The notes below the pieces were generated by a model. The model did no database searches. It saw only the letters and a list, made by a program, of their open reading frames with translations, and was not told where the DNA came from. From the IMG/VR virus record IMGVR_UViG_3300023296_001674: a stretch of 64,000 nucleotides of DNA, one strand, 5' to 3'. Source of the DNA: a virus. The translations under genes were made by a program, and so were the position numbers. Each line of letters begins with the position of its first letter. The first letter of the stretch is position 1. Of the stretch, positions 3,018 to 25,812 are shown piece by piece.

Positions 3018-3065
3018 AAGTGTCCCACTAACCGTCTAATATTAGAAGAATAAAGTGGGACACTT
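3018..3065 (+). promoter_or_regulatory. 12-bp perfect inverted repeat (stem-loop) in a ~290-bp leader
   Basis: AAGTGTCCCACT-24 nt-AGTGGGACACTT; no T-tract follows, so not a simple terminator. Confidence 0.35.
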
Positions 3066-3088
3066 ATCACAATTTAAAGGAGAATAAA

Positions 3089-3292: not shown

Positions 3293-3296
3293 AAAA

Positions 3297-5111
3297 ATGA
3301 TTACAAAAACAAACAAACTGCTAATTTGTAAAGCTGGTGAAGTAGTGACTATTCAGGGTTGGGTTCATAGAACACGCGACCATGGCGGACTTACTTTCAT
3401 CGATTTCCGCGATTATGAAGGATTGGTGCAGTGTGTTTTTGACAATTATGGTGGTACGGTTGATTATCATCATTTGCGGGATGAGTCTGTCGTCCGAATG
3501 ACTGGTGCTGTCAGATTGCGACCAACGGGAACGGAAAATCCTAACTTGCGTACAGGCGACATTGAGATTGAAGTTAGTGAGATAGAAATATTGAACGGCG
3601 CGGATGTGTTGCCATTTAAGGTGTTTGCTGAAGAAGAAGAATATACGCCGTCTTTGGAACAACGATTAAAATATCGTTATTTGGACTTGCGTCGTGATGA
3701 AAATCAAAAAATGTTGAAGTTGCGGTCTGATGTTCAGCATTTTATCAGAAACTACATGCATGATCAAGAATTCATAGAAGTTCAAACGCCTACCTTATCG
3801 TCGACGTCACCAGAAGGAGCAAGAGATTTTTTGATTCCGAGCAGAATACACAAAGGTCAAGTATATTCATTAATTCAATCACCACAAATTCAAAAACAAT
3901 TGCTAATGGCGAGCGGTGTAGAAAAATACTATCAATTATGTCGCTGTTGGCGCGATGAGGCGTCACGTTCTGATCGCGCACTTGAATTTACACAGTTGGA
4001 TTTAGAAATTGGATTTGGCACACAAGAAATGGTGTTTAGTTTAGTTGAACCATTGTTGACAGAGATGTTTGAATCATATGGACTAGGATGGAAGTTGAAT
4101 CAATCACCGAGATATGATGATGGCGATCATGGATTTGTGAGAATACCATATAAAGAATCAATTGAAAAATATGGCACGGATAAACCCGATCTACGGGCGA
4201 GTCTTGAAATGACCGATGTGACTATTTTATTCAAGAAGCAAGGGCCGCAATTCATTGTGGATGCTGTTGAATCAGGACAAATAGTTAAAGCAATACATCT
4301 TACGGATGCAGATGGATTAAGTGGTAAATTCTACAAAGATATTGAAAAATATGCTCAAGAGTTGGGTATGCCGGGATTGGGATATGTCAAATCTGGTTTC
4401 AGTGTAGATAATGGCGGAAACCCCGGACCATTGGCTAAAATGATGAATGCTGGACAATTGACGCAGTTAAGATCAATAGTTGGGTTTAATCCTTTATCTA
4501 GTGACACACAGGCAACCTTCCTTATGGTTGGGCATCCTAAAGCAGTAAACGCATGGGGTGCCGATTTACGGGTTGAGTTATCCAAGCGAACCAAAAACTT
4601 TGATGAAGAATCTTATGAGTTTTGTTGGATTGTAGATTTTCCATTTTTTGAAGAAAATGAAGAAACGGGAAAGATTGATTTCTCGCATAATCCATTTAGT
4701 ATGCCAAAAGGTGGCATGGAAGCATTGGAAAATAAAAATCTGTTGGATATTTTAGCTTGTCAGTATGACACGGTTCTGAACGGAATGGAAATTAACAGTG
4801 GTGGCGAACGAAACTATAATCCAGAAATTATGAAAAAAGTTTTTGAAATAGTCGGATATGATGAATCGGTAGTTGAAGAAAAGTTTCCTTCGTTGTGGGG
4901 GGCGATGAAACTTGGTCATCCCCCTTGCGCTGGTTGTGCACCGGGTATAGACCGATTGATACAATTATTGATGTTTAAAGATGGTGGGCATATAAGAGAT
5001 GTGACGGCATTTCCAATAGGTTCAAATGGGATTGATTTATTAATGGGGGCACCATCTGTGCCATCGGATGAACAAATTAAAGAGTTGGGTATTAAATTTC
5101 AGAAGAAATGA
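3297..5111 (+). CDS. aspS: aspartate--tRNA ligase, bacterial type
   Basis: 604 aa; class II motif 2 WRDEASRSDRALEFTQLD (cf. E. coli FRDEDLRADRQPEFTQID) and motif 3 GCAPGIDRLIQLL; N-terminal OB fold; bacterial insertion domain length. Confidence 0.9.
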   Translation: MITKTNKLLICKAGEVVTIQGWVHRTRDHGGLTFIDFRDYEGLVQCVFDNYGGTVDYHHLRDESVVRMTGAVRLRPTGTENPNLRTGDIEIEVSEIEILNGADVLPFKVFAEEEEYTPSLEQRLKYRYLDLRRDENQKMLKLRSDVQHFIRNYMHDQEFIEVQTPTLSSTSPEGARDFLIPSRIHKGQVYSLIQSPQIQKQLLMASGVEKYYQLCRCWRDEASRSDRALEFTQLDLEIGFGTQEMVFSLVEPLLTEMFESYGLGWKLNQSPRYDDGDHGFVRIPYKESIEKYGTDKPDLRASLEMTDVTILFKKQGPQFIVDAVESGQIVKAIHLTDADGLSGKFYKDIEKYAQELGMPGLGYVKSGFSVDNGGNPGPLAKMMNAGQLTQLRSIVGFNPLSSDTQATFLMVGHPKAVNAWGADLRVELSKRTKNFDEESYEFCWIVDFPFFEENEETGKIDFSHNPFSMPKGGMEALENKNLLDILACQYDTVLNGMEINSGGERNYNPEIMKKVFEIVGYDESVVEEKFPSLWGAMKLGHPPCAGCAPGIDRLIQLLMFKDGGHIRDVTAFPIGSNGIDLLMGAPSVPSDEQIKELGIKFQKK

Positions 5112-6102
5112 TGTCCCATTCTGATTCCCATATTTCAACTAGATTATAACCTGCATTTATTATACGCTGGCGTTTTAGTTGAGTTTCTTCGTGTAAATGA
5201 CCCATCGTTTTATGGTTTACTTTGTTTATGATATCTGGGGTATATTTATTTGGATTGCCGTGCCAATAATCGCCCCAGAATTCATATATTGTATTATCTA
5301 TAAGACCATCAACGCAAATTTTACCAGTTTTTATATTATCATTTAACGATATAACGACTTGCCTATTATTATGATTATTTGGCACCGAGATATGATCTAA
5401 CCAACTATCTTGTTTTTTCCATTTTATCTTACATAGTTTACATCCTCCTGATGATGTATCCAGCAACGATTTAGAAGCCGTAAGGATGGGCTGGTTGTGT
5501 TTTTTGCATACCAAGTTAGTTATAGGATAATGAACGCCTGTATGCGCCGCATTTGCCCAATCTAGGTTATTGTATTGTTCCATTCCAAACACTGATATGT
5601 ATCTATTTTTATATTCTTCTAATGTGATTGATTTAAATAATGATAACGATTCGTTTCCACACTTAAGACATCCACCAGTAGCAGATTTTAATAAATCTTT
5701 TGGGCAAGACATTATAGGTTCATTATGGATTTTACATATTAAATTATCAACGGATGATAACGCCCCGTTATATGATGAATCGCACCAATTTAATTTATCG
5801 TGTTTATATATGCCGAATATTTTTATATATTCATTTCGAAATATAATAAGTGATTTTTTATTGGGATTGCAGTTGGATTTATGTTCAGTTATGCATTGGG
5901 GGCAACCACCATTGCCATTATATATCAAATTGTTGGCATGCTGTGAAACTAATTGATTGTGTATTATACATAGTAAATTGTTTATTGGTTTATGTATACT
6001 AATATATTCAGCATTTGACCAATTTAGATTATCAAATTTGTTTTGACCATGCTTTTTAATATAACGTTCTTTTATTGTGTTTAGGTTTATATTTCTTGAC
6101 AT
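5092..6102 (-). CDS. Vsr/DUF559-type homing endonuclease with three tandem Cys-containing repeats
   Basis: C-terminal EFWGDYWHGNP...RQRIINAGYNLVEIWESEW (DUF559/Vsr-like nuclease fold); three ~100-aa N-terminal repeats each with KHNQPI/KIHNEPI + GGCxxC; 3' end overlaps aspS 3' end convergently by 20 nt. Confidence 0.55.
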   Translation of the reverse strand: MSRNINLNTIKERYIKKHGQNKFDNLNWSNAEYISIHKPINNLLCIIHNQLVSQHANNLIYNGNGGCPQCITEHKSNCNPNKKSLIIFRNEYIKIFGIYKHDKLNWCDSSYNGALSSVDNLICKIHNEPIMSCPKDLLKSATGGCLKCGNESLSLFKSITLEEYKNRYISVFGMEQYNNLDWANAAHTGVHYPITNLVCKKHNQPILTASKSLLDTSSGGCKLCKIKWKKQDSWLDHISVPNNHNNRQVVISLNDNIKTGKICVDGLIDNTIYEFWGDYWHGNPNKYTPDIINKVNHKTMGHLHEETQLKRQRIINAGYNLVEIWESEWDIISSEI

Positions 6103-6228
6103 TATTGCTTCCTTGCTTTACTATATAAATAGTTTTGGGGACACCAGTTACTTCCTTGCAACTGCTGTTTAGATGTCCTACCATCTAAACTTACCCTATA
6201 TCTATTTATCAATAAAATTGGAAATCAA

Positions 6229-6735
6229 ATGCTTAAATTAATGGAACAAATTGAAAACTTCAACGATCCACGTAAAGATGGGTTGTTGAAGTTCCATCAA
6301 GATAATATGGATTTTGTTAATACCGCAAAAGGGTCTTCGCATAACCATCAGGCATGGGAAGGTGGATATAAAGATCATATTGCTGAAACCTTGCGTATTG
6401 CTGATGTCGTTTATGCTGGAATGTCGCAAATACGTGAAATGCCATTTGAACTTGATTCGGGCAAAATTTGTTTATTATTGCACGATATTGAGAAAATATG
6501 GAAATATTCAACGGGTGAAGATATCAATAAACAGTCTTGGTATACTAATATCTTACCAACAGTTTATAAAGTTGAATTGACCGATGATGAAATGAATGCA
6601 TTAGAATATACACATGGCGAAGTTGACGATCACTCTAAAACAGAGAGAAAAATGGGTCGACTAGCAGCATTTGTTCATGCTTGTGATTGTATGTCAGCAA
6701 GATTGTGGCACGATGAAGGTAAAGGATTGGGCTAA
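6229..6735 (+). CDS. HD-domain phosphohydrolase-like protein
   Basis: SHNHQAWEGGYKDHIAE (His) followed by ICLLLHDIEK (HD dyad). Confidence 0.45.
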   Translation: MLKLMEQIENFNDPRKDGLLKFHQDNMDFVNTAKGSSHNHQAWEGGYKDHIAETLRIADVVYAGMSQIREMPFELDSGKICLLLHDIEKIWKYSTGEDINKQSWYTNILPTVYKVELTDDEMNALEYTHGEVDDHSKTERKMGRLAAFVHACDCMSARLWHDEGKGLG

Positions 6736-6838
6736 ATAAAAACATAGGCGGTAGGATAAGTGCTCCACACATGGTGGTAATGATTATTTAATCGGCAATA
6801 TGCTATACCCAGCGCCCGTTGATGCGTGGTAACAGAAA

Positions 6839-7267
6839 TCAACTACTTTCTAATTTTGCTACTTCTGATTCCCAATCGATGGGAAGTATTTCACGAATAT
6901 GGCTATATTTAAATTTTATAATATGTTTTGCTGGATCGCTGTCGCCATAATCGAAATCAAGTTTGTGCTCTATGCATTCACTTGATACAAGTTCAATTGA
7001 GCAATATGGATTGGATGAACTAGCGAGTGGTTCTACATATATTGGTAATGTGTTTTTGACTATGAAATTAACCACATTAATCATCGATAGTTCTACTGAT
7101 TGTCTAATGGTTACATCAAATGTTTTATTTTTCATGTCGATTGAGCATTTTTCAATATTTCGTGTAATACATGCTTGATCTTTGTAAAATATAGCATGAC
7201 CAAAAATCACACGAAATTGATATTTAAGAACAGGCATCATCATGCCTTGTTTTTCTTTTTTTGTCAT
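6839..7267 (-). CDS. hypothetical protein
   Basis: 142-aa non-repetitive ORF with AGGA SD; the overlapping + ORFs look spurious. Confidence 0.4.
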   Translation of the reverse strand: MTKKEKQGMMMPVLKYQFRVIFGHAIFYKDQACITRNIEKCSIDMKNKTFDVTIRQSVELSMINVVNFIVKNTLPIYVEPLASSSNPYCSIELVSSECIEHKLDFDYGDSDPAKHIIKFKYSHIREILPIDWESEVAKLESS

Positions 7268-7328
7268 TATTAATTCCTATAAAGATGAGGGGGTATAATA
7301 ATATTTATACTATAAATTAAGTGTGGTT

Positions 7329-7784
7329 TTAAAGGGTTTCGTCGGATTTATTTTTTTCACGCGATCCCTGTGATAACAAATCAAATAATGCTTCTTTGTT
7401 TGCTTTTTTTAGGTCATTGTCGACCATATATGATTTATAATCTTTTATGATTTTTTGTACTGCTTGTTTATCACCAGTATGCAATGCTGTTTTATATGCA
7501 TCATATATATCATCGCGATTTACTTTTTCTAAATTGTACTCAGTTCTTATTATATTTCTTAATCGAACGTCGTCTGGAAGGTTTCTGCCGACACCACGAC
7601 CACGTTCGTTTTTGTCCCATGTTTTACCAGCATACTTTTTTAACGCTGCTTTGGCGTCGGGTCCGCCAGCCCCCACAATGCCAGCATTTGCTGCATTTGC
7701 GGTATTTGCAATACCTTTGCCGACGTTTTTTGCAATATCTGCAACGCCTTCATCTATATTTTCAAATAGTTCTATAAGTTTCAT
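7329..7784 (-). CDS. hypothetical Gly/Ala-rich protein
   Basis: 151-aa ORF; the overlapping + frame (N-terminal part of track ORF 7447..8088) is low-complexity junk. Confidence 0.4.
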   Translation of the reverse strand: MKLIELFENIDEGVADIAKNVGKGIANTANAANAGIVGAGGPDAKAALKKYAGKTWDKNERGRGVGRNLPDDVRLRNIIRTEYNLEKVNRDDIYDAYKTALHTGDKQAVQKIIKDYKSYMVDNDLKKANKEALFDLLSQGSREKNKSDETL

Positions 7785-7806
7785 ACTATTATTTATAAAT
7801 AACTAC

Positions 7807-8088
7807 ATGAGAGCAAAAGAATTTATAACAGAATACATCGGTGATTTGAGTGATTGGGTAATATTATCCAAAAATGCTATATTGTCGAGAATTGCAAAGG
7901 GTGAAATACCCAATAATCCAGATTCCATAAAGAAAGCCGCTATGGATTTGGCTTCACGTATAAAAGATTCCAATGGTGATCCAATACAAGATGTAAGTCC
8001 TGAAATGCTTGCTGCCGAAGTAGAACGTCAGATTGAATATGATAATTTGTATGACAATTCTCATCTGGGTGGAAAAATACCACAATAA
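7807..8088 (+). CDS. hypothetical protein, MRA(K/H)E(F/I)I N-terminal family (paralog 1)
   Basis: ATG at 7807 begins MRAKEFITEY; shares 5' codon block with ORFs at 11051 and 59975; the track ORF from 7447 is a spurious upstream extension. Confidence 0.45.
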   Translation: MRAKEFITEYIGDLSDWVILSKNAILSRIAKGEIPNNPDSIKKAAMDLASRIKDSNGDPIQDVSPEMLAAEVERQIEYDNLYDNSHLGGKIPQ

Positions 8089-8152
8089 CTATTGACACGT
8101 ATATATAACGTGTTATTATCATAAACTATTATATCGAACAAGGAGAAGTATT

Positions 8153-8581
8153 ATGGCCTTACTTAAGGGTACTGGTGTTCTTGTATACGATCCTCCTCGT
8201 CCGGGTATGAAAAATACTGATTGGTGGATTGTAGTGAACACCGATAATGAAATTTGCCGCTACTATCGTTGGTGGGTTTGGAAACGGTACATGATCGTTC
8301 TGAACCAGCCTTCTTGGGGTGCACACATTTCCGTTCTTCGTGGTGGTAAGCCACGCGAGGACAAAATTCATTTGTGGAAAAAGTATCAAGGTGAAAAAAT
8401 TGATTTTGAATATTCACCAAACATTCATCAACAGGGTGATGACACTGGTGATTTAGGACCACACTGGTTTGTTGATGCATGGTCTGAGCGTCTTAGCGAC
8501 ATTCGCGAAGAACTTGGTTTCACAAACGAATTTGGTGGGAAAAAGATTAAGTATCACCTAACTTGTGGGCGTACCAACTAG
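8153..8581 (+). CDS. hypothetical protein
   Basis: AAGGAG SD; 142 aa, Trp-rich; no motif recognised. Confidence 0.45.
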   Translation: MALLKGTGVLVYDPPRPGMKNTDWWIVVNTDNEICRYYRWWVWKRYMIVLNQPSWGAHISVLRGGKPREDKIHLWKKYQGEKIDFEYSPNIHQQGDDTGDLGPHWFVDAWSERLSDIREELGFTNEFGGKKIKYHLTCGRTN

Positions 8582-8595
8582 GTACGTCCTTTTTT
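8570..8595 (+). terminator. intrinsic terminator
   Basis: CGTACC-aacta-GGTACG stem followed by TCCTTTTTTC. Confidence 0.5.
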
Positions 8596-8596
8596 C

Positions 8597-8624
8597 TTGA
8601 CTTAATTTAATATGAGTGTATAAT
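8597..8624 (+). promoter_or_regulatory. sigma70-type promoter for tRNA-Cys
   Basis: TTGACT-16 nt-TATAAT ending ~9 nt before the mature tRNA 5' end. Confidence 0.55.
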
Positions 8625-8633
8625 ATATTTAAT

Positions 8634-8709
8634 GTCGTGGTGGCGAAATTGGTAACGCGATGGCTTGCAAAGATATTTATTGGGTGTTCGAGTCACCCCC
8701 ACGACTCCA
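8634..8709 (+). tRNA. tRNA-Cys (GCA), CCA encoded
   Basis: 7-bp acceptor GTCGTGG/CCACGAC; D arm with GG; anticodon loop TTGCAAA (U33, GCA, A37); T arm GGGTG-TTCGAGT-CACCC; discriminator U73 as in bacterial tRNA-Cys; 76 nt. Confidence 0.8.
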
Positions 8710-8728
8710 AATTTTAAAGGAGATATTC

Positions 8729-9553
8729 ATGAGTAACGTTATTGGTGGGCAACAACGGGTTAGATTAATATTTGATAAACGTGCGTCAAATGTTCTATTT
8801 GCGAAAGGTCAAAAACGATTATTCAGTGAACCAAATGGCACTAATCTTATGTTGACTCCTATTATGGGCGGTGGCATCGAAAAAGCAGGTCGCCGTGGTA
8901 GTAATAAAAACGGTAAAGTCAATATGGGTGATGAGATATTTCACGATAAAAAAACTGATTGTGCAGAAACTGTTTTATATTATGGAACAAAAGATGCAAT
9001 GAATTACTATCCTGTTCGGGGACAAGCGCAAATCTATCGATCTGGTTATCAATATTATATTGATGAAGTCGATAAATCAAAATATGCGGAATTTGGAAAA
9101 GTAACCATTGATTATATTGACGCGTTCGATGAGGATGATATTGAAAAATTAAGTTTCGACTTCAATACACCCGCATCGAATAAATATTTTTCTGATATTT
9201 TAAGAAATCGCGCAAATGGCGTAGTTGAACCGGGTCGTATGGCATTATTTTTATATAACGGCAAACCAGCAATTAATTTTTCACCAACTGGTAATGCCAT
9301 GGCGTTTGCCAAGGTATGGGCAAAAGGACCAGGTACGGTAAAGGGTGATTTCCATAAAGATGTTGTTAGAAATTTAAAACTTATCCCTGGATCGAGATAT
9401 AAATTCATCGTTGATGCTTATGATGCTTATGATGCTGATATTGTGTATTTGGAATATTTGTCGGAAGTTACTCATTTTGCACAAGTTGAGAAGTATGATT
9501 TTCCAGTTGTGACTGCATCCATTGTTCGTAAAAAAGGCGATTCTTGGGAGTAA
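8729..9553 (+). CDS. hypothetical protein
   Basis: ATG at 8729 after AAAGGAG; the track ORF from 8660 would read through the tRNA and is rejected. Confidence 0.45.
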   Translation: MSNVIGGQQRVRLIFDKRASNVLFAKGQKRLFSEPNGTNLMLTPIMGGGIEKAGRRGSNKNGKVNMGDEIFHDKKTDCAETVLYYGTKDAMNYYPVRGQAQIYRSGYQYYIDEVDKSKYAEFGKVTIDYIDAFDEDDIEKLSFDFNTPASNKYFSDILRNRANGVVEPGRMALFLYNGKPAINFSPTGNAMAFAKVWAKGPGTVKGDFHKDVVRNLKLIPGSRYKFIVDAYDAYDADIVYLEYLSEVTHFAQVEKYDFPVVTASIVRKKGDSWE

Positions 9554-9561
9554 TAGAGTTT

Positions 9562-9990
9562 TTATGCTTGTAGTAAGTGTTTTTCTTGCATAAATTCAAT
9601 AAATTTCATATCGGTTTTTTTAACATGTTCTTCGACGACTAATGCGAACGATGTTAAGACTTCAATGTGTGATAAAGGGTCATTTGGGTCATTTGCGACA
9701 CTTAATAGCATATCAGTCATAATTTTCATGTATTTAGCATGTTCAATTATGTGTTCATTAGCATATGGATATTTTTGTTTTTTCATGTATATATTTTCAT
9801 CATGAAAGTGTATAAGCATAAAATCTATGAGATATAGTGCTTGTTCTTTGATTGTCGCATGATCTTTATCGTCGGCGAGACATTCCACTAGAATATTATA
9901 TCTGTTAAATATTTCTTTGTGTGCATCATCGGTTGATTTATCGAAGCACGTTAGAGTGTCGTCCCATTTAATCATTTGATAGTTTTCCAT
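9562..9990 (-). CDS. hemerythrin-like metal-binding protein (tentative)
   Basis: H..E / HF..E / H...H spacing (LIHFHDENIYM, HIIEHAKYM) resembling the hemerythrin HHE cation-binding domain. Confidence 0.3.
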   Translation of the reverse strand: MENYQMIKWDDTLTCFDKSTDDAHKEIFNRYNILVECLADDKDHATIKEQALYLIDFMLIHFHDENIYMKKQKYPYANEHIIEHAKYMKIMTDMLLSVANDPNDPLSHIEVLTSFALVVEEHVKKTDMKFIEFMQEKHLLQA

Positions 9991-10008
9991 AGTGCTATAG
10001 TTTATTTA

Positions 10009-10037
10009 TTGACATATATAAATAGATTTGTTATAAT
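10009..10037 (+). promoter_or_regulatory. consensus sigma70 promoter
   Basis: TTGACA-17 nt-TATAAT, then AGAGGAG SD and ATG at 10064. Confidence 0.55.
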
Positions 10038-10063
10038 TATTTATTAAAAGAGGAGAAATTAAT

Positions 10064-10306
10064 ATGGGATTCCCAATAGTAGCAGCGTTTGGACTTGGAA
10101 TGGTAGGCGCAGTAGGCGCAAAAGTTGGAACACAGCATGTTTATCCATGGTTGGTTGAAAATGCTAGCAAAGGCAAAGAAACATTGAATGATTGGTTAGA
10201 TTATACACTCGCCAAGGTGGAAACAAAGTTTGATTTCGAACATGCTGAGTTAAAAGGCGACATTGAAGAAAAAAATATCGAAAGAAATATGAACATCATC
10301 AAATAA
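10064..10306 (+). CDS. small membrane protein
   Basis: N-terminal hydrophobic Gly-rich helix MGFPIVAAFGLGMVGAVGAKVG; 80 aa. Confidence 0.4.
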   Translation: MGFPIVAAFGLGMVGAVGAKVGTQHVYPWLVENASKGKETLNDWLDYTLAKVETKFDFEHAELKGDIEEKNIERNMNIIK

Positions 10307-10451
10307 ATGTTGACTAAATGTTGACTATATGCAATATTGTGATAATATAAGTAAATATTACAAACATTGGAGTAAAGCGCATGTCTATAAAAAATTTAAA
10401 AGAAGGTAAATGTGAATTCCGTTAGGTAACTTAACTTAATGGAGAAAACAC

Positions 10452-12816: not shown

Positions 12817-13359
12817 ATGAAATTTTTTCAATGGCTAGATAATAAAGAAGCTGAAAAAATGCCGGAACGAGATATTGATGACATAAAACCGATATCAAGT
12901 AAAAAATCAGAGTTAGATAAAAAGATTTTTGAAGTAGAAAATGGGGTAATTGATATTACTGCATTGGATAATGATGAAATCATAGAAAAGAAATTTGTTC
13001 ATGCTGCGACAGGTAAAAAATATAAAACTGAACGTGCGCTAAAAGCTGGAATAACACGATATAATAAGAAACAGAATGTTTCACCTAGCTCGATAAATCT
13101 TGCAGGTAGAAACACACCAGAAGCACGAGATAAAGCAAAAAAAATTATTAAAAAAATGAATGCTGCTGAGAATCTTACATTGATAAAAACGGGTTTAAAA
13201 TACGATAAACCCGACGATAGTGTAAATCAAGTTAAAACAGATAAAGAATTAAAAATATTTGTCGATGCAGAAACAGGCAAAACGTATAAAACAGCACCTG
13301 CTTTAAAAGCAGGTATAACTAGACGATTAAAAAAACAAAAACAAGGCGATAAAATATGA
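12817..13359 (+). CDS. hypothetical protein with internal duplicated basic motif
   Basis: two copies of K(K/T)YKT..ALKAGITR..KKQ; start taken at the ATG with AAGGA SD. Confidence 0.4.
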   Translation: MKFFQWLDNKEAEKMPERDIDDIKPISSKKSELDKKIFEVENGVIDITALDNDEIIEKKFVHAATGKKYKTERALKAGITRYNKKQNVSPSSINLAGRNTPEARDKAKKIIKKMNAAENLTLIKTGLKYDKPDDSVNQVKTDKELKIFVDAETGKTYKTAPALKAGITRRLKKQKQGDKI

Positions 13360-13598
13360 GTAATAGACACGGAAAATGTGAAATCGGTAAAGGATTATCA
13401 GTAGCTGTACGCGGCGATGAAATCGAAAAAGCGATGAAAAAATTCAAAAAAATGATTATCAATGAGGGATTTTTAAAAGAACTAAAAGCCCGTCAAGAAT
13501 ATGAAAAACCAAGTGATAAAAGACGTCTTGCTAAAAAAGAAGCAGTGCGTAGACAGCAAAAAGCGATAGCGTTACGTATTAAACACGACGGTTATTGA
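13356..13598 (+). CDS. rpsU: ribosomal protein bS21
   Basis: 80 aa; VAVRGDEIEKAMKKFKK...EYEKPSDKRRLAKKEAVRRQQK aligns with E. coli S21 (RRFKRSCEK...[23 protein letters not shown]). Confidence 0.8.
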   Translation: MSNRHGKCEIGKGLSVAVRGDEIEKAMKKFKKMIINEGFLKELKARQEYEKPSDKRRLAKKEAVRRQQKAIALRIKHDGY

Positions 13599-14128: not shown

Positions 14129-14184
14129 TCTATTGACCTTTTAGATATATATGGTATTATTACATATATTTAAAGGAGTTGAAA

Positions 14185-15204
14185 ATGTTATTAGAACGTG
14201 ATAAATTTAGAGAAGGTGTGTTTGAACGCGATAGTCATAAGTGCGTCATGTGTGATGCACCTGCTCAAGATGCTCATCACATCATTGAACGTAGGCTCTT
14301 TACGGATGGTGGCTATTACTTAGATAATGGGTCTAGCCTGTGTGGTGAACATCATTTAGCAGCCGAATATACAACGCTTTCGCCACAAGAAATTCGTGAA
14401 AAAATAGGCATCACTAAAGTCGTATTACCAGAGCATTTATACCGCGATCAAGAGTATGACAAATGGGGCAACCCTATGTTACCTAACGGCACACGCCTTA
14501 AGGGTGATTTGTTTGATGATTTGTCGGTTCAGAAAGCATTAAAGGCTGGTGGCGTTTTGGGAAGTTTTACGCACTTAGTGAAATATCCAAGAACATATCA
14601 TGTAATGTGGAGTCCCGGTTTAAGTAATGATGACCGTGCGCATAACTCATTGGATCAGTTTGAAGGAAAAAATGTTGTCGTCCATTTGAAGATGGACGGT
14701 GAAAACGCAAGTTTTTATAATGATCATTATCACGCACGTTCGTTAGATACTGTTAATCATCCATCTCGCAAATGGGCTAAAATGCTTCATGCGCGTATTA
14801 TGGGTGATATACCAGAAAGCTGGCGTGTGTGTGCTGAGAATTTGTATGCTGAACATTCGATTCATTATGACGATCTTGAAGCCTTCGTTCTTGCTTTTTC
14901 TATATGGAATGAAAAAAATGAATGCCTTGGTTGGGATGAAACCCAAGATTGGTTTGAGTTGTTAGAAGTTCCACAAGTTCCAGTTTTGTATGAAGGATTA
15001 TTTTCAGAAGAAAAGTTGCATGAAATTGAATCAACGCTTGATTTTGAAATTGATGAAGGATATGTGATGAGAACGCGAGATAGTTTCCATTATAATGACT
15101 TTCGGCAAAATGTCGCTAAATATGTTCGTAAAGGGCATGTTCAACATTCAACCGAAGGACACTGGATCAATCGACCAATTACGCCTAATGAACTGAGAAA
15201 ATAA
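14185..15204 (+). CDS. HNH-motif / ATP-dependent nucleic-acid (RNA) ligase fusion protein
   Basis: N-terminal CVMCDAPAQDAHHIIER...NGSSLCGEHH (HNH zinc finger); central VHLKMDGENAS (nucleotidyltransferase motif I KxDG), IDEGYVMRTR (motif IV) and AKYVRKG (motif V) as in Rnl-family ligases. Confidence 0.5.
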   Translation: MLLERDKFREGVFERDSHKCVMCDAPAQDAHHIIERRLFTDGGYYLDNGSSLCGEHHLAAEYTTLSPQEIREKIGITKVVLPEHLYRDQEYDKWGNPMLPNGTRLKGDLFDDLSVQKALKAGGVLGSFTHLVKYPRTYHVMWSPGLSNDDRAHNSLDQFEGKNVVVHLKMDGENASFYNDHYHARSLDTVNHPSRKWAKMLHARIMGDIPESWRVCAENLYAEHSIHYDDLEAFVLAFSIWNEKNECLGWDETQDWFELLEVPQVPVLYEGLFSEEKLHEIESTLDFEIDEGYVMRTRDSFHYNDFRQNVAKYVRKGHVQHSTEGHWINRPITPNELRK

Positions 15205-15214
15205 GGAGACTATA

Positions 15215-15523
15215 ATGGGACTTAGAATATGTTTCGAGCCACACGAAAAAATGGAAATCAACGATGCTGGCGTATTTAGATATTACGCAGAGAACTATTT
15301 GTCTGATTTTGATGTAGAATTTGGCGGTTGTTATGCAATGGATGCTGGAAAGAAGAAACTCCAACGTTTGGAGCCAGTGTGGCAATTTTTAACAACTTGG
15401 CAAATTTATGGCGATTCCGACCTAGTTAGTTTGTTGGGTTATTTTGACGAGAATCCATTGAATGGTTATTATATTCATGTATTCGAATCAGTGTATAATG
15501 GAAATGAAGTAAAAATTTACTAA
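15215..15523 (+). CDS. hypothetical protein
   Basis: AAGGAGAC SD; 102 aa. Confidence 0.4.
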   Translation: MGLRICFEPHEKMEINDAGVFRYYAENYLSDFDVEFGGCYAMDAGKKKLQRLEPVWQFLTTWQIYGDSDLVSLLGYFDENPLNGYYIHVFESVYNGNEVKIY

Positions 15524-17808: not shown

Positions 17809-18962
17809 ATGAATGACACTGTAACAGTAGAAGTAGCAACTGTTGAAGGCAAAGATATTAAAGCCGAAATGGATTTAAGCCTTTCCGAAAGTAAAGGAGC
17901 ACTTGCGGTTGCTTCTGAAAACACTTCCCCCGCAGATCAAAAGCGCGTTAAAGAATTGATATTGGTAGCACCGATTCAATTATCAACTTCGGCGTTGAAG
18001 CGCAGGGTGGTTTAAGTAAACAATCTGATGCGATGCTTAAAGGAGTTCGCAATAAAGATACTGGACCTGCTGGTGAAGTTATGAACGGTCTTATGGTTCA
18101 AATTCGTGGTTTGGGTCTTAGTGATCTCGATCCTGGTGAAAAACGAGGATTTTTCGGCAAAATGTTAGGTAAACTTACACCTGTTCAAAAATTCCTTCAA
18201 TCATATGAAAGCGTTGAAAGTCAAGTTGACGCCATGGTTGCGAAATTGACGCAAGAAAAAAACACACTACAGCGCGATGTTATTATGCTTGATGCAATGT
18301 ATAATGAAGCATTGGTATTTTTTGATGATTTGGCTTTTTATATTGAAGCCGGTGAATTGAAACTTGCTGATGTTAAAAACGTTGATATTCCAGCATTGGC
18401 GGATAAAGCACAGCAATCAGATAATATGCTTGACGCACAAGCACTTCGTGATATTAACGAACGCACACTCGATCTTGAACGTAAAATTCAAGACCTTATG
18501 CTTACACGCCAAGCAACAATGCAAATGCTTCCGCAATTACGCATGATTCAAGATGTTGATAAAGGTCTTGTAACAAAGATTCAATCTTCTATTCTTGTTA
18601 CCATTCCACTTTGGAAAGGCCAAATTGCTATGGCTATCACACTTTGGAGACAGGCTGGTGCAATCAAAACACAAAAAGCAGTTTCCGATGCCACCAATGA
18701 TATGTTGCTACAAAATTCTGCATTGTTGAAGCAGAACAGTGGTGACGCTCGATGCGAAATGGAACGTGGCGTTCTTGACATGGCAACATTGAAGCAGGTT
18801 AATGATGATCTTATCGCTACCATCGTGGAAGCCGGTCAGATTGCTGAAGAAGGCAAACGAGCGCGTATTGCTTCAAGGGTTGAAATGGATAAGTGTGAAA
18901 CTGAACTTAAAGCTGCTTTGAAAAATTCAGGTGCTAATGCCCTGAACGCAATCGCAGCCTAA
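17809..18962 (+). pseudogene. TelA-family toxic anion resistance protein, interrupted by a frameshift near 17958
   Basis: ORF 18033..18962 carries TelA signatures (IPLWKGQ, LLKQNSGDARCEMERGVLDMATLK); the N-terminal motif SIINFGVEAQGGLSKQSDAMLKGVRNKD lies in frame 0 upstream of 18033, while its leader (17809..18015) is in frame 1. Confidence 0.55.
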
Positions 18963-18992
18963 TTATTGAAAAATAGGAAAGGAGACTATATT

Positions 18993-20719
18993 ATGAATAA
19001 TCGACTTAAGATGAGTATCTACGCCGCAGCATTGGTATTAACCAGTGCTGTGTCGGCGCAGGCGGCTAGCAATTATGTTGGCATGGATTCTGTGAACAAC
19101 GTTGTCACAGAAGGCGTTCGTGATTGCCGTGGTGGTGAGGGTAATAATATTCCCATTATCACGTGGGGTGGTGATATGATTACCATTCATGCAAACGGTG
19201 ATGCGCTTGTAACCAAAGCAGGTAGTGTGTTTGACAAAGAAGGTCTTGCACTTACCTTGAAACGTGAAGACGTATTCACCAAACAGGTTGCCGGATATCT
19301 TCGTTGTGATACGCCATATATTCGTGGCACACAAGGTCAGTTAAATCTTGCTGCGGCGGTTACTGAAAACGATCCACGCACAAAAATGGTTACTATCTTC
19401 CAGCACACATGGTCGAATGGCGGTGATGCGTTGGTTGTTAAAGATGGCATCAAATCATTGGCGGATTTGAAAGGCAAAACTATCGCGTTGCAAGCATATG
19501 GACCACATATTAGTTATTTGTTTAAAATTCTTTCTGATGCAGGACTTAAACCAACCGATGTTAAATTGAAATTCACCAAAGATTTAGTTGGACTCGACGA
19601 GGATACAACGCCGGGTGTTGCGTTACTTGAAGATAAAAGCATTGATGCGGCGATGGTTATTATTCCTGATGCATTAACACTTACCTCTGGTGGAACAGTA
19701 GGAACTGAAGCCGAAGGTGCTGTAGAAGGGGCAACTATTCTTCTTACTACAAAATCAGCAAGTCGTGTTATTTCTGATGTATACGCAGTTCGTCAAGATT
19801 ATTTTGACGCTCATAAAGCAGAAGTTCAATCTTTTGTTCATGGGTTGATGGGTTGATGGTTGCAGAAGAAAATTTAGTTGCTGCCGCACGTGGTAAAACC
19901 GCCGCGTTTAAGAGTACTGTTGCTGCTACAGCAACCATTCTTCTTGGTGCCCCTACCGCGATTGGTGATGCAGGCGACCTATGGATTGATGCTGAAACCA
20001 CAGGTATCAACGGGAATGTGAAGTTTTTCACAAATAATAATTTTTCACGCAACTTTACGGCTATTACTGCCGAAATTCAACAATCATATGTGGATTTAGG
20101 GCTTCTACCAAAAGCAATGGTTTTGGCTGACGCTGGTTGGGACTACAGTGTATTGGCGATTGACTTGAAAACTGCTGGTAAGATTGAAGCACCCAGGTTT
20201 GATACTAAAAAACTTACTGCGGCTGTAACGGCAAAGGCTGCTACTGGTGATCTTGACAAAGGCGCATTGTTTACCTTCGAAATCAATTTTAAGCCAAACG
20301 TTAAGGAATTTCCAGTAGCGTTATACATGGACGCATTTAAGAAGGTGATTGATCTATCAAACACTTATTCTGGTGCAGTGATTACGGTTGAAGGACATTC
20401 CGATCCTTATGGTTATCAGAAAAAGCAGGAAAAAGGTGTAGGCGAAGGAATTCTTTCTAAAATCAAGCAATCTGGACGCACATTGAGTATTAAACGTGCT
20501 GGTGCGGTTCGTGATGCGATTATTGCCCTCGCCGAACAAGATGGTATTACGATTGACAAAAGTCAGTTTGTTGCCATCGGACTTGGTATCTCTAGCCCAA
20601 AGAATGCAATTATGCCTAAATCCATAGCGGAATGGACTACAATTACTGCGCAAAATCGTCGAGTTGTGTTTAAATTGATTAATATCGAAGCAGAATCTTC
20701 TGAATTCGAAGCACTTTAA
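18993..20719 (+). pseudogene. secreted substrate-binding-fold + OmpA-like domain protein, split by an 8-bp tandem duplication
   Basis: signal peptide MNNRLKMSIYAAALVLTSAVSAQA; NMT1/SsuA-like fold; C-terminal OmpA-like VEGHSDPYGYQ...LSIKRAGAVRDAI; GGGTTGAT is duplicated at 19842-19857, and removing one copy fuses ORFs 18966..19856 and 19853..20719 in frame. Confidence 0.55.
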
Positions 20720-20734
20720 GGGGGGATTAATAAT

Positions 20735-21523
20735 ATGAAAATATATAACAAACTCTTTATTTCATCTATCCTTGTAGCCAGCGTTCTTTTAGTTGGCTGT
20801 GAGGAAAACGCCGCACCTCTTGCCCCAAAAGCGGCAGTTGCTACAACTCAAACTTCGGATAATACACCACAGGCGGAACAAGCGCCTTGGGTTTGGCCGG
20901 GAACATCAAAAGGTGCTATTGCGTTAGCATCAGATTTGACAGCAAATAACTATATGGTAGTATATGATGGTTCTGGTAGCATGGGTGACCCATCATGTGA
21001 TAAAAATAGCCAAACATCTAAGCATGCAGAAGGCAAAATTGCTCTTAAATCATTTATCAATGCGATACCCGATGAATCTAATATTGGTTTTTACGCATTT
21101 GATAATAATGGAAAAGGTGTACGAACACAACTTAATACAGGCAACAAATCAAAAATCGTTGCTGAGATTGATAGTGTTAGTCCTGGTGATGGAACTCCGT
21201 TAAAAAGTGCGGTTAGAACAGGTTATGATGCATTGACTTTACAAGGTCAAAAACAACTCGGTTATGGAAGATATGTGTTAGTTATTGTGACTGATGGTGT
21301 TGCAAGTAGCGGTGAAAGTCCAACCAATATTGTTAATGACATCATTGACGATACACCAGTTGAAATACATACTGTTGGTTTTTGTTTGGGTGATAAACAT
21401 ACACTTAATCAACCGGGACGAACATTTTATGCTTCTGCGACAAGTTCCGAGGAAGTGTTGAAATCTCTGGAAGATGTTCTTTCAGAATCTTCGGATGTTG
21501 ATGATAACGACTTCAGTAACTAA
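20735..21523 (+). CDS. von Willebrand factor A (VWA) domain lipoprotein
   Basis: lipobox LLVGC; MIDAS motif VYDGSGSMG and downstream VTDG. Confidence 0.6.
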   Translation: MKIYNKLFISSILVASVLLVGCEENAAPLAPKAAVATTQTSDNTPQAEQAPWVWPGTSKGAIALASDLTANNYMVVYDGSGSMGDPSCDKNSQTSKHAEGKIALKSFINAIPDESNIGFYAFDNNGKGVRTQLNTGNKSKIVAEIDSVSPGDGTPLKSAVRTGYDALTLQGQKQLGYGRYVLVIVTDGVASSGESPTNIVNDIIDDTPVEIHTVGFCLGDKHTLNQPGRTFYASATSSEEVLKSLEDVLSESSDVDDNDFSN

Positions 21524-21526
21524 CAC

Positions 21527-21554
21527 TTGACATGTTGGGTGGTCATGTTAATAT
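21527..21554 (+). promoter_or_regulatory. sigma70-type promoter overlapping an imperfect inverted repeat
   Basis: TTGACA-16 nt-TAATAT; GTTGGGTGGTCAT / ATGATCACCCAA arms span the spacer and -10. Confidence 0.45.
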
Positions 21555-21588
21555 ATGATCACCCAATATTATTTTATAAGGAGTTATT

Positions 21589-21939
21589 ATGGAAGAAAAT
21601 ACGTATACTGTAAAACAATCACCAAATGGATCGACGCATTGGTATGATGAAGATGGAGCATTGCATTGTATCGGTGCACCTGCTATTATTACACTCAGCA
21701 AAGGTTTAATGATTAGTGAAGAATGGTATAAGCATGGTAGATTGCATAATTTAAACGGACATGCAAGAATTGGCTACAAACAAAACGCCGATGGTGATAT
21801 GGATGTGACGTGGTCGCAACATTGGATTGATGGTGAACAATTGTCGGAAAAAGAATTCACCGAACAGACCACTGTTAAACAAATGACCATGGATGAAATA
21901 AACACTAAGTTGGGTTGTATTGTTGATATTGTTGAATAA
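21589..21939 (+). CDS. MORN-repeat-like protein
   Basis: EWYKHGRLHNLNGHARIG and HWYDEDGALHCIGAPAII resemble the MORN_2 unit (WYxNGxLHRxDGPA). Confidence 0.4.
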   Translation: MEENTYTVKQSPNGSTHWYDEDGALHCIGAPAIITLSKGLMISEEWYKHGRLHNLNGHARIGYKQNADGDMDVTWSQHWIDGEQLSEKEFTEQTTVKQMTMDEINTKLGCIVDIVE

Positions 21940-21966
21940 TATTTTTACTAAAGAAAGGATTATAAA

Positions 21967-23520
21967 ATGAAACCATTACATATCGTAATTGCTTTAATTT
22001 TAACACTTATTGGTGTTGGAGGAATGGTCGGGTATAAAGTGTTTGACGATGCTTCGTTGACTGCTTCCACGGATTCCGCTAATGTTCGCGAAACTGTAAA
22101 TATTGGTGTTGATAGTTGGGCTGGTTATACAGTGTTATGTTCAACTGAAACGAGACGATTAGCGCTTGTTGATGGCATTCTTGTAAAGTGTCACGATGAT
22201 AAAGCCAACTATACAGATCGTATGGCTAAACTAGCCAGTGAAGAATTGCAAATGGCTGCTGCTGCGGTTGATGGTTATGTTCTTGCAGGTGATGCAGTTA
22301 AATATCCGGGCAGTGTTACATTTGTTATCGATGAATCACAAGGTGGTGATGTTATTATCGCCAACGCAAGTGTAGCAAAAAATATCAATGATTTGAAAAA
22401 TCGCAGTGGTGTTAAAATTGCATTTACCCCTGATTCACCAAGTCAGACGTTACTTACTAAATGGAGTAGCGACTTTGATGTTAAAATTAATGATCCCAAG
22501 GCGATAACATTGGTTCACGCTAATGGTGCAGCAGACGCTGCTAAAAAACTTCAAAATGGTGAAGTAGATGTTGCAGTTGTTTGGGAACCACACGCATCCA
22601 AATTGTTAAGTAATGCAAATTTTGTTAAACTTATTGGCACAGAAAGCACTAAAAACCTTATCGTTGATGTGTTACTCACCAATCAGCGTTATGCAAAAAG
22701 CAATCCAGATGTAATGAAGACGGTTGTTAAATCATACTTTTTAGCATTGGAGCATTATAAAACAAACACCAAAGAATTTGATGATGAGATTATTCGTTAT
22801 GCTGGTGCCAGCCGTGATCAAGTTGACGCAATTAAAGCGGGTATCAATTGGGTTGATTTACCACACAATGCCGCAGATTGGTTGGGTATTAGTCAAACTG
22901 GCGGTAAAGCGCAACGACAGTTGTATGACACCTTCAACTCTGCGGTTCGTTTATATGTCAATAGTGGTGATTTTACTACAAGCCCTATTCCTGGTGATGA
23001 TCCGTTTCGTTTGATTGATTCAAGTGCATTCAATGACGTATATACATTGGGAATGACTGGAAAACTTGGTGTTATGTTTCAACCTATCACAGTTATCAAA
23101 GACGTTAGTGTTACACGCCCCTTTAAGAAACTTTCACCGGGTCGTTGGGCTAAACTTAAAGATATTGGATCATTGAAATTACAAGCTATTACGTTCAAGC
23201 GTGGAACATACGAACTTGAATCAACAGGTCAATCCGCATTCAAATCATTGGTTGAAATGCTTGAAACATATCCAAATTATCGCATTAAAGTTGTGGGTCA
23301 TTCGGGCAAGCGCGGAGATCAAGCGGCTAATATGGTTCTTTCTAAAAAACGTTCTATATCTGCGGCAAAATATTTGATGGACAAATATGGCATTGACAAA
23401 AATCGAATTTACGCGTATGGTGTAGGCAATGGACAGCCACCTCGCCGTGAAACCGGTGAAACGAAACGTGCATATAATGCAAGGTGGCCTCGTGTTGAAC
23501 TTATTTTAGTGGAAGGATAA
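21967..23520 (+). CDS. membrane-anchored substrate-binding-fold (NMT1/SsuA-like) protein with C-terminal OmpA-like domain
   Basis: N-terminal TM helix; GEVDVAVVWEPHASKLL binding-protein fold; C-terminal VVGHSGKRGDQAANMVLSKKRSISAAKYL (OmpA/MotB peptidoglycan-binding motif); intact paralog of the split gene at 18993. Confidence 0.6.
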   Translation: MKPLHIVIALILTLIGVGGMVGYKVFDDASLTASTDSANVRETVNIGVDSWAGYTVLCSTETRRLALVDGILVKCHDDKANYTDRMAKLASEELQMAAAAVDGYVLAGDAVKYPGSVTFVIDESQGGDVIIANASVAKNINDLKNRSGVKIAFTPDSPSQTLLTKWSSDFDVKINDPKAITLVHANGAADAAKKLQNGEVDVAVVWEPHASKLLSNANFVKLIGTESTKNLIVDVLLTNQRYAKSNPDVMKTVVKSYFLALEHYKTNTKEFDDEIIRYAGASRDQVDAIKAGINWVDLPHNAADWLGISQTGGKAQRQLYDTFNSAVRLYVNSGDFTTSPIPGDDPFRLIDSSAFNDVYTLGMTGKLGVMFQPITVIKDVSVTRPFKKLSPGRWAKLKDIGSLKLQAITFKRGTYELESTGQSAFKSLVEMLETYPNYRIKVVGHSGKRGDQAANMVLSKKRSISAAKYLMDKYGIDKNRIYAYGVGNGQPPRRETGETKRAYNARWPRVELILVEG

Positions 23521-23524
23521 TAAC

Positions 23525-23710
23525 GTGGGCATTTGGAGAGGTTGCACACAAAAAGATTTGGTCAAGCAGTTTATCATCGATAAAGGCACCCTCGACGCTA
23601 TATATATTGCTAAACGGTTATGGCCTTCCCATCCACAACCATCCGAATGGATTGAGTTTACCGAAGATGATATTAATCAGTTACAACAGTATGAAATGGA
23701 GAATAAATGA
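23525..23710 (+). CDS. hypothetical small protein
   Basis: GTG start; 61 aa. Confidence 0.3.
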   Translation: MGIWRGCTQKDLVKQFIIDKGTLDAIYIAKRLWPSHPQPSEWIEFTEDDINQLQQYEMENK

Positions 23711-24537
23711 TGGACGCACAATTTATTGATTTATCACAGATGACACCGGAAGCGGTTAAAAGCGCAGTGTTTAAAAATACCGCTACTAACCCATTAACGA
23801 TTTTTCCAATTCTTGCAAGTTTGCCGATATTGGGTGTTTGGGCGATTTTTGATGCAGGTTTGTTATTTGTTGCGTTAAGTGTTTTATCGGCTGCGGGTGG
23901 TGGTAGCATGTTTGCTATAAATTACTTTGGTCGTTATGCAGTGTTCTCTAACAAATATTTCATTCAACTTCGAAAAGATAATGAAGCGAAAGCAAAACAG
24001 AAACTCGTCGAAGTTGAAGAATTTCTCGATGAACGCGAATTTGAGCAAGGTGCAAGACAGGTAACTAAATTGCAAGCATCAATGACTGCTTTTGAAAAGG
24101 TTCTTGATCGTAAATTTGAACCGCATGAATTTGCACGTGCCCGATATCATGGCGTAGCCGAACAAGTTCAATTGAATGCACTTGGCAACCTAGAACAAAT
24201 TGTGACTATGTTGACGGCGGTTGACGCAATTGATCCAGAATATATTCAAAGACGTATTGACGAACTTGGCGAAATTGCAAATGATAACGATGGTTTGAAT
24301 GATTCGCAGTGGGAAGAAAAAGAAGCACTTGAAGCACGATGGGAACTTCGTGAAAATCAATTCAAGGGTATTGACGAACTGCTTTCACAGAACGAAAAAG
24401 CAATGACTGAACTTGGTAAAATATCAACCAATATTGCCTCTTCAAATGTTGCGGGTAATAGCGCAGAAGAAGATTTAGAATCAGCAATCGATTCACTTAA
24501 CAATCTTGGAAAAGACGCCCAAAAGCATTGGGCTTAA
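23707..24537 (+). CDS. membrane protein with C-terminal coiled coil
   Basis: two N-terminal hydrophobic helices followed by a long acidic helical region; ATGA overlap with the upstream gene. Confidence 0.4.
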   Translation: MMDAQFIDLSQMTPEAVKSAVFKNTATNPLTIFPILASLPILGVWAIFDAGLLFVALSVLSAAGGGSMFAINYFGRYAVFSNKYFIQLRKDNEAKAKQKLVEVEEFLDEREFEQGARQVTKLQASMTAFEKVLDRKFEPHEFARARYHGVAEQVQLNALGNLEQIVTMLTAVDAIDPEYIQRRIDELGEIANDNDGLNDSQWEEKEALEARWELRENQFKGIDELLSQNEKAMTELGKISTNIASSNVAGNSAEEDLESAIDSLNNLGKDAQKHWA

Positions 24538-24562
24538 CTGAAACTATAAAGGAGAACTTATT

Positions 24563-25603: not shown

Positions 25604-25631
25604 CACTTGACACAATATGTATATATGATAA

Positions 25632-25664
25632 AATGGTGTAATAGAAATATTACACCATTTTTTT
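25632..25664 (+). terminator. intrinsic terminator
   Basis: perfect 12-bp stem AATGGTGTAATA-gaaa-TATTACACCATT followed by TTTTTTT. Confidence 0.6.
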
Positions 25665-25677
25665 ACGAGGAGTGCAA

Positions 25678-25788
25678 ATGATTTATAAAAATAAGTTATT
25701 CAGAAATTCAAATTTTAGACTAACGGTAGAAATTGCATTTACTATCACAGTTTTTTTATTGGTGGCGTTTTTTGGCGCATATTATTAA
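25678..25788 (+). CDS. possible 36-aa hydrophobic peptide
   Basis: ACGAGGAGTGCAA ATG; MIYKNKLFRNSNFRLTVEIAFTITVFLLVAFFGAYY; below the size cutoff of the ORF track. Confidence 0.3.
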   Translation: MIYKNKLFRNSNFRLTVEIAFTITVFLLVAFFGAYY

Positions 25789-25812
25789 TATAATAAAATA
25801 AGGAATAATTAA

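Follow-up and report, generated by a model that had tools for sequence, protein, structure and literature searches.

An HNH–ligase fusion gene of a huge phage: a widespread architecture related to HD-Pnk-associated minimal ligases

The stretch of viral DNA analyzed here, 64,000 nucleotides from IMG/VR record IMGVR_UViG_3300023296_001674 (hereafter the window), carries on its forward strand a gene for a 339-residue protein in which an HNH nuclease domain, an ordered connector and a minimal ATP-dependent ligase domain follow one another in a single open reading frame (ORF). A sequence-only reading of the DNA had described this gene as a fusion of an HNH zinc finger to an Rnl-like ATP-dependent ligase, and this description is correct, as judged by matches to the Pfam RNA_ligase model (PF09414) and to PHROG HNH families and by hits of a family profile among PDB structures. 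The source of the gene is a huge phage; an identical protein (P0001) is present in public metagenomes on a contig of 570,750 bp. The best match among phage proteins is 55% identical, and the copy in the window is a new sequence with the same architecture as fusions that were already catalogued. The coding sequence and its parts are as follows.

14185..15204, forward strand: coding sequence of the 339-residue HNH-connector-ligase protein, a single ORF from ATG at 14185 to TAA at 15202-15204 (included)
14197..14379, forward strand: HNH (beta-beta-alpha-metal) nuclease domain, residues ~5-65, with a CCCH zinc site
14242-14253, forward strand: HNH residues C20 and C23 (C20-x2-C23)
14275-14280, forward strand: HNH residues H31 and H32
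14326-14328, forward strand: HNH residue N48
14341-14355, forward strand: HNH residues C53, H56 and H57 (C53-x2-H56-H57)
14380..14574, forward strand: ordered connector, residues ~66-130, with conserved YDKWGN, LPNGxRLKG and SVQKxL (alignments A1 and A2)
14575..15201, forward strand: minimal ATP-dependent polynucleotide ligase (nucleotidyltransferase) domain, residues 131-339, beginning at the conserved KYPRTxH..WSPG...DD
14689..14706, forward strand: ligase motif I, K169-M-D-G-E-N, with K169 as the predicted AMP-acceptor lysine (from the sequence)
14830..14847, forward strand: ligase motif III, C-A-E218-N-L-Y
15052..15072, forward strand: ligase motif IV, D290-E-G-Y-V-M-R296
15118..15135, forward strand: ligase motif V, K312-Y-V-R-K-G317

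All motifs quoted in the sequence-only reading were recovered, both those of the HNH part (CxxC...HH...N...CxxHH, at C20xxC23, H31H32, N48 and C53xxH56H57) and ligase motifs I (KMDGEN), IV (DEGYVMR) and V (KYVRKG), at K169, D290 and K312. Motifs III and IIIa (F238SIWN) are present in addition to those it had listed.

Eleven HNH-endonuclease families of PHROG match residues ~5-69 (E values 3e-8 to 6e-3; 3e-8 to 1e-3 for matches on residues 6-62), and a family profile built from 54 homologs matches the HNH domains of IscB in the PDB (E 2e-4). The Pfam HNH model gave no match at E <= 1 on the 339-residue protein; it is recorded for a homolog that is 76% identical. The catalytic residues His32 and Asn48, the metal-binding His57 and the zinc site C20/C23/C53/H56 expected of HNH nucleases are all in place, and the question of whether the catalytic His and Asn are intact, raised by the sequence-only reading, can be answered affirmatively for the family as well. 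Among 183 full-length homologs, C20, C23 and C53 are each retained in 181, H32 in 177, N48 in 180 and H57 in 174, while residue 56 is His in 130 and Cys in 40. The counterpart of H32 in the alignment with IscB is the second residue of the HH pair, the catalytic His247. By both sequence and fold, the closest relatives of residues 5-65 are the HNH domains of IscB/Cas9 and of McrA-type restriction enzymes, and IscB shares with the phage protein the C-x-x-H-H variant of the last zinc/metal motif. These relatives are RNA-guided or modification-dependent DNA cutters with other architectures, whereas the HNH-ligase protein contains no RuvC, guide-RNA or modification-reader domain.

The ligase domain is matched by Pfam RNA_ligase over residues 163-314 (E 2.7e-29), and among PDB entries the ligases found by the profile of 54 homologs are 3qwu from Aquifex (E 6e-4) and Rnl5 from Naegleria gruberi (E 9e-4). 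A KxDG motif I, followed in order by motifs III, IIIa, IV and V on the appropriate fold, places the domain in the covalent nucleotidyltransferase superfamily. These motifs are conserved in the 183 full-length homologs: K169 in 179, D171 in 180 and G172 in 182 (motif I); E218 in 179 (motif III); E291 in 178, G292 in 179 and R296 in 178 (motif IV); and K312 in 179 and V314 in 176 (motif V), with K312 invariant in alignment A1. Two observations that could have overturned the sequence-only reading, a central domain of some non-ligase family and a KxDG lysine that varies among homologs, were not made, as profile and fold searches put the body among RNA ligases and the lysine is nearly always kept.

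The Rnl2 C-terminal domain is required for nick sealing. The phage protein has no C-terminal accessory domain, its chain stopping 22 residues past motif V, and consequently lacks the all-helical domain that follows motif V in the strict T4 Rnl2 family. None of the RNA-ligase models of NCBIfam matched at E <= 1 (the sole hit was a chance-level IscB match), T4 Rnl2 was not matched by the family profile in the PDB at E <= 1, and identity to T4 Rnl2 and Trypanosoma REL1 is about 15%. Membership of the strict T4 Rnl2 family was therefore rejected. The same holds for the Rnl5 family (Naegleria gruberi NgrRnl and Deinococcus DraRnl), to which similarity is marginal at 13-17% identity and, for NgrRnl, limited to profile positions 154-310; the N-terminus of the phage protein is an HNH domain and not the Rnl5 N-domain. 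By its fold, the ligase body works like an Rnl2- or Rnl5-type nucleotidyltransferase. As a separate observation, many homologs (P0125, P0132, P0133, P0135, P0145 and many truncated clusters) carry an intein inside motif I, directly after KMDGE, at a site corresponding to about residues 173-176. The intein of P0125 is of the LAGLIDADG type, is about 360 residues long and ends in HN followed by Cys. Inteins tend towards functionally critical sites.

An AlphaFold2 model computed on the 54-homolog alignment has a mean predicted local distance difference test (pLDDT) score of 95.5 and a predicted template-modeling (pTM) score of 0.88 and contains no disordered linker; the connector itself scores 91-98. 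The HNH domain, connector and ligase are thus confidently predicted to form one compact body. When 63 proteins, each representing a cluster at 50% identity, are compared in pairs, they share on average 46% identity in the HNH domain, 37% in the connector and 38% in the ligase. As conservation of the HNH domain matches or exceeds that of the ligase and catalytic residues are kept in both, selection acts on the two halves as enzymes. The fusion point and the connector are fixed across the aligned homologs, and no separate HNH or connector ORF was found beside ligase-only genes in the sampled loci. In one Desulfobacterales contig (L027), two equal-scoring copies of the first ~35 HNH-profile positions lie just upstream of the fused gene on the forward strand (5718-5885 and 5991-6158), which represent either a tandem duplication of the 5' end of the gene or an assembly artefact.

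The fusion is not rare. Residues 2-339 match the PHROG family phrog_24030 (‘RNA ligase’) over profile positions 3-342 of 342 (E 3.6e-130). Full-length phage homologs of 46-55% identity occur in Salicola SCTP-2, Ralstonia RsoM2USA, Caulobacter CcrBL9/CcrSC and Acinetobacter ME3, and a full-length homolog of 30% identity occurs in the archaeal Halogranum virus HGTV-1. A large protein database holds 3857 relatives, the best 120 of which are all ~340 residues long, and some ~340-residue homologs in bacterial assemblies are named ‘RNA ligase family protein’. In all, 2052 clusters at 50% identity match the protein, and a locus search with a 14-sequence alignment, for which ENLYAxHSI in the motif III region served as the conserved pattern, located relatives at 582 places in species-representative genomes. 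The fusion is spread over phages of bacteria and archaea, conjugative elements and many phyla. A passage of Iyer et al. (2021; PMC7824862), citing Burroughs and Aravind (2016), describes an ‘Rnl2 family fused to N-terminal HNH’, and these catalogued jumbo-phage ligases have the same architecture from end to end as the protein in the window. The architecture is therefore widespread and already catalogued; the statement of the sequence-only reading that it is not a commonly described one does not stand against the PHROG family, the thousands of ~340-residue homologs and the mention in PMC7824862, and is true only in the sense that the fusion has never been characterized. PADLOC assigned the protein to no defense-system family at E <= 1e-3.

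Many relatives are only ~210 residues long and correspond to residues 131-338 of the phage protein, that is, to the adenylation domain only. The ligase domain (residues 131-339) is about 46-50% identical to such stand-alone ligases, and 47-53% identical over residues 131-338 to those at 50 loci. We compared 86 loci, 50 with ligase-only and 36 with fused genes, in which ORFs were predicted with our own greedy caller and neighbors were clustered by BLAST. An adjacent gene for a protein with HD and AAA_33 domains was found in 37 of the 50 ligase-only loci. Usually the ligase gene is followed directly by that of a ~420-residue protein consisting of an HD phosphohydrolase and an AAA_33 P-loop kinase; in the layout found in Firmicutes, a ~320-residue version precedes the ligase. 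This neighbor is an HD-Pnk-type end-healing enzyme. Fused genes have it as a neighbor in only 2 of 36 loci (Fisher p 9.5e-11), and the 64-kb window, which belongs to a genome no smaller than 570 kb, contains no HD-Pnk homolog, next to the fused gene or elsewhere. The ligase comes from a heal-and-seal family, and in its fused form it does without the healing partner.

The minimal ligases linked to HD-Pnk and the HNH-ligase protein share the KYPRTxHLPWSPG..DD start and motifs I-V; unlike the latter, the minimal ligases have neither HNH domain nor connector and depend on the adjacent HD-Pnk. In the ligase domain, fused and unfused forms share 46% identity, compared to 44% within the fused and 52% within the unfused group, and both forms are intermixed in a neighbor-joining tree of ligase domains. 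The similar identities and the interleaving show that fused and unfused ligases are one family. A single origin of the fusion was not upheld, as the tree fails to separate the two forms; the intermixing could reflect repeated gain or loss of the HNH domain, or poor resolution of the tree. The HNH-ligase protein is thus a member of a catalogued fusion family overall and, by its ligase domain, of the HD-Pnk-associated minimal ligases.

Two HD-Pnk operons have been studied, of which that of Deinococcus adds PARG and that of Runella adds Tpt1. In Runella slithyformis (studied by the Shuman group), the ligase ORF overlaps the start of the HD-Pnk gene and clusters with Tpt1; the ligase self-adenylylates and sealed none of the RNA and DNA substrates tried in vitro (PMC6097658). 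The title of a paper cited there states that the Runella HD-Pnk heals DNA and RNA ends (PMC6097658). The operon of Deinococcus radiodurans has the order DRB0100-DRB0099(PARG)-DRB0098(HD-Pnk). DRB0100 (LigB/DdrP) consists of an adenylation domain only, without a DNA-binding motif, forms K40-AMP and sealed no DNA or RNA substrate tried in vitro, and a recruiting protein was suggested to be needed (Blasius et al., PMC1997131). The operon is induced by radiation, DRB0098 is needed for resistance to ionizing radiation, and DNA ligation in the presence of helper proteins is reported by one study (PMC6300522). In a Deinococcus hohokamensis member of the family, which starts with MSTRTKYPRTPHLPWSPG, the lysine of motif I is at about position 42, compared to K40 in DRB0100. 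The ligase-only loci have the gene arrangement described for Runella, which corresponds to the Deinococcus operon too; from this arrangement and the place of the lysine, DRB0100 and the ligase of Runella would belong to the same ligase family as the HNH-ligase protein.

In further proteins the ligase module is joined to other domains. P0209 (2792 residues) combines it with a CCA-adding-type nucleotidyltransferase, HAD_SAK_1, a 2H phosphoesterase and topoisomerase IB, and in P0252 and P0258 it is fused to an AAA_33 kinase. Other large multi-domain proteins with the module include P0201 (940 residues) and P0265; the partners include topoisomerase IB alone or the AAA_33 kinase. Around the fused gene itself, no conserved partner emerged, with BLAST neighbor clusters spanning at most 3 of the 36 loci. 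A Pfam census of 116 ORFs flanking fused genes likewise revealed no recurrent family (at most 3 occurrences for any); RtcB and Band_7 occur twice each in this set, and RtcB lies within 5 kb of the fused gene in 3 loci. The 102-residue ORF downstream in the window (15215-15523) and its positional counterparts elsewhere neither contain a Pfam domain nor group with one another.

For a phage, the window is dense in translation genes (3297-5111, 13356-13598, 52156-53103, 53425-54675, 8634-8709 and 40585-40666), which comprise AspRS, ribosomal protein bS21, a TilS-like PP-loop protein, TyrRS, a tRNA-Cys and a tRNA-Met call. The bS21 gene is located two genes upstream of the HNH-ligase gene, and bS21 adjoins the fused ligase in another locus (L017) too. 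The tRNA-Met was called by ARAGORN at 40585-40666 (forward strand, 82 nt, anticodon at position 33); the Rfam tRNA model at its gathering threshold reported the tRNA-Cys and not this one, which may be an atypical or tRNA-like gene. The Rfam search of the window found only the tRNA-Cys and no non-coding RNA partner. Elsewhere, PTH2 and YqeY are encoded near the fused gene of another phage, and the Methylobacillus copy lies within a conjugative element alongside an RF-1-domain protein.

Tentatively, we favor a reading in which the protein is a self-contained enzyme for processing and sealing breaks, probably in RNA repair during infection, with the role of the HNH domain as proposed here. K169 would accept AMP from ATP, by analogy with the apparent relatives DRB0100 and the Runella ligase. 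The HNH domain and connector would supply a grip on nucleic acid to an otherwise domain-less ligase and would add end processing, trimming damaged or blocked termini to ligatable 3'-OH and 5'-phosphate ends. Cleavage by HNH nucleases leaves a 3'-OH and a 5'-phosphate, the ends that a lysyl-AMP ligase requires. The ligase would then reseal the break without a kinase-phosphatase partner. The likely substrate would be a tRNA or rRNA of the translation apparatus, broken by host nucleases in the course of infection. RNA is favored because the nearest folds are RNA ligases, because the chemistry of the partners in fusions and operons is specific to RNA ends, and because the gene lies among translation genes; we infer both that RNA rather than DNA is the substrate and that cutting is coupled to sealing. 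The suggestion of the sequence-only reading, a cut-and-seal repair enzyme that possibly counters host anticodon nucleases, is plausible in that it fits the RNA-repair fusions and the nearby translation genes.

Several points weigh against this proposal. The search for a separate kinase-phosphatase covered the 64-kb window, whereas the genome measures at least 570 kb, and in the huge phage LR756500 and in loci L028 and L033 the fused ligase does adjoin an HD-Pnk gene; as these keep both, the HNH domain does not strictly take the place of HD-Pnk. DRB0100 and the ligase of Runella, which are the nearest relatives studied, sealed neither RNA nor DNA in vitro, so that even 3'-OH/5'-phosphate ends are only putative substrates of the ligase family. 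The structural relatives of the HNH domain are all DNA nucleases (IscB, McrA, GVE2, Cas9 and ZRANB3), and the Deinococcus operon is tied to resistance to radiation and mitomycin, which points to DNA (PMC6300522). The topoisomerase IB fusions of the ligase module are ambiguous in this respect. Finally, our literature search found no experimental paper on the HNH-ligase fusion.

In a rival explanation, proposed in print by Iyer et al. (2021; PMC7824862), the two halves are independent weapons: the HNH domain would cut DNA of the host or of competing phages and the ligase would repair RNA that the phage needs and host ribonucleases have cut, without coupling between them. The HNH relatives, all of them DNases, favor it. 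Phages often fuse unrelated conflict domains, the multi-domain proteins with the ligase module being an example. We consider this explanation somewhat unlikely. The conserved and confidently ordered connector, the single compact body of the model (pTM 0.88) and the finding that HNH and connector never occur apart from the ligase in the sampled loci argue for a joint function; the fused form lacks the HD-Pnk partner, suggesting that the N-terminal module alters how the ligase works; and an unregulated DNase would endanger the genome of the phage too.

Alternatively, both halves could act on DNA, the HNH domain nicking, resolving or trimming breaks that the ligase then seals, as a phage counterpart of the DRB0100-DRB0098 operon. 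The induction of that operon by radiation, the need for DRB0098 under ionizing radiation and the DNA ligation reported with helper proteins (PMC6300522) are in line with this, as are the healing of DNA as well as RNA ends by the Runella HD-Pnk, going by the cited title, the DNA nucleases among the HNH homologs and the existence of topoisomerase IB-ligase fusions. Against it, the protein has no OB or DNA-clamping domain, Blasius et al. observed no DNA ligation by DRB0100 (PMC1997131), and the 2H phosphoesterase, CCA-adding nucleotidyltransferase and HAD_SAK_1 fusions together with the clustering with Tpt1 represent RNA-specific chemistry. A DNA break or nick processor is unlikely in our estimation. 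Slightly more doubtful again is a bolder version of the favored RNA-repair reading, in which HNH and connector would create or hold the true substrate of an orphan ligase family, giving an autonomous incise-and-rejoin enzyme, which in huge phages may work within a vault-like assembly; a segment of tRNA or rRNA that is damaged or modified, for instance, would be excised and the ends religated.

A further possibility is that the HNH domain only binds nucleic acid, as the zinc finger of DNA ligase III does, without catalysis, which would make the protein just a ligase. This would account for the lack of any binding domain in the minimal ligases of the family and for the zinc ligands being the most conserved residues; it is nevertheless improbable, as the catalytic residues are kept nearly as strictly (His32 in 177, Asn48 in 180 and His57 in 174 of the 183 homologs), which is unexpected for a structural finger. 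A selfish homing HNH endonuclease fused in frame to the ligase by chance is highly improbable and was already disfavored, for although free-standing HNH homing endonucleases are common in phages and the ligase gene is a target of mobile elements (the motif I inteins), the fusion is old and widespread in phages of bacteria and archaea, conjugative elements and many phyla, its HNH domain shows conservation equal to or higher than that of the ligase, and the fusion point and connector are fixed.

Upstream of the gene, two candidate expression signals can be identified.

14173..14179, forward strand: Shine-Dalgarno-like AAAGGAG, read off the sequence, 5 nt 5' of the ATG
14133..14160, forward strand: promoter-like TTGACC-16 nt-TATTAT with TG extension, from a consensus scan, in the 56-nt gap upstream

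The promoter-like site is weak evidence for a promoter, because the region is AT-rich and 33 such sites were observed compared to 24 expected from shuffles. A TTG codon lies in frame two codons before the ATG at 14185; the starts of homologs, with the shared opening M..LLxRDxFR in the alignment, coincide with this ATG. The GC content of the gene (39%) is close to that of the window (36%), and a megablast search of the phage collection with the 4 kb around the gene gave zero matches.

The window also encodes a homolog of the major vault protein (MVP; 886 residues, 30686-33346, forward strand; Pfam MVP_shoulder E 2.9e-22, Vault_3 E 1.9e-12), about 16 kb from the HNH-ligase gene. Its relatives in a collection of 50,697 phage records are confined to three records from huge uncultured phages, LR756500 and LR756501/LR756503, and are 40-42% identical over the full length, the MVP-like protein of LR756500 being 42% identical. 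In the latter, a 462-kb phage, a tight co-directional cluster (L089, LR756500.1 20500-31000, minus strand 408-10372) has the order PARP catalytic domain, R2K ATP-grasp, AAA ATPase, HNH-ligase, HD+AAA_33 HD-Pnk, DFP-like and MVP-like, so that the MVP-like gene lies two genes from the HNH-ligase/HD-Pnk pair. The fused ligase of this phage is 39% identical to that of the window. The grouping of MVP-like and PARP-like genes resembles the eukaryotic vault pairing of MVP and vPARP, and the cluster may be a multi-enzyme module for break repair or one linked to ADP-ribose. Cluster members other than the ligase and MVP have no homolog in the 64-kb window. An MVP gene adjoins the fused ligase in LR756500, loosely in L043 and not in LR756501, and we regard the linkage to vault proteins as a lead and not as a finding.

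Genes for NAD+ salvage and ADP-ribose metabolism (NAMPT/NAPRTase, NMNAT-NUDIX and NADAR) lie a few genes from the fused ligase in two unrelated loci, SCTP-2 (L002, 2294-4771) and L005 (1-1699 and 9610-10143). They echo the Tpt1, PARG and PARP of the Runella, Deinococcus and LR756500 clusters. Cargo that is unusual for a phage is encoded at 56712-57773, 18033-28019, 49619-50617 and 111-758 of the window and comprises Band_7/SPFH, TelA, VWA, OmpA-domain and NMT1-type binding proteins, an ABC permease and ATPase, a cation-efflux protein and a histidine phosphatase.

The fusion itself is no discovery: it is very common, has been catalogued and bears the annotation ‘RNA ligase’. It provides a natural handle on the substrate question of ligases of the DRB0100/Runella type, apparently of the same family, which by themselves adenylylate only. 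If cutting and sealing are coupled, the protein would be a compact cut-and-rejoin enzyme of 339 residues, with possible use as a tool, and would represent a kinase-independent route by which phages repair RNA in the face of host ribonuclease defenses.

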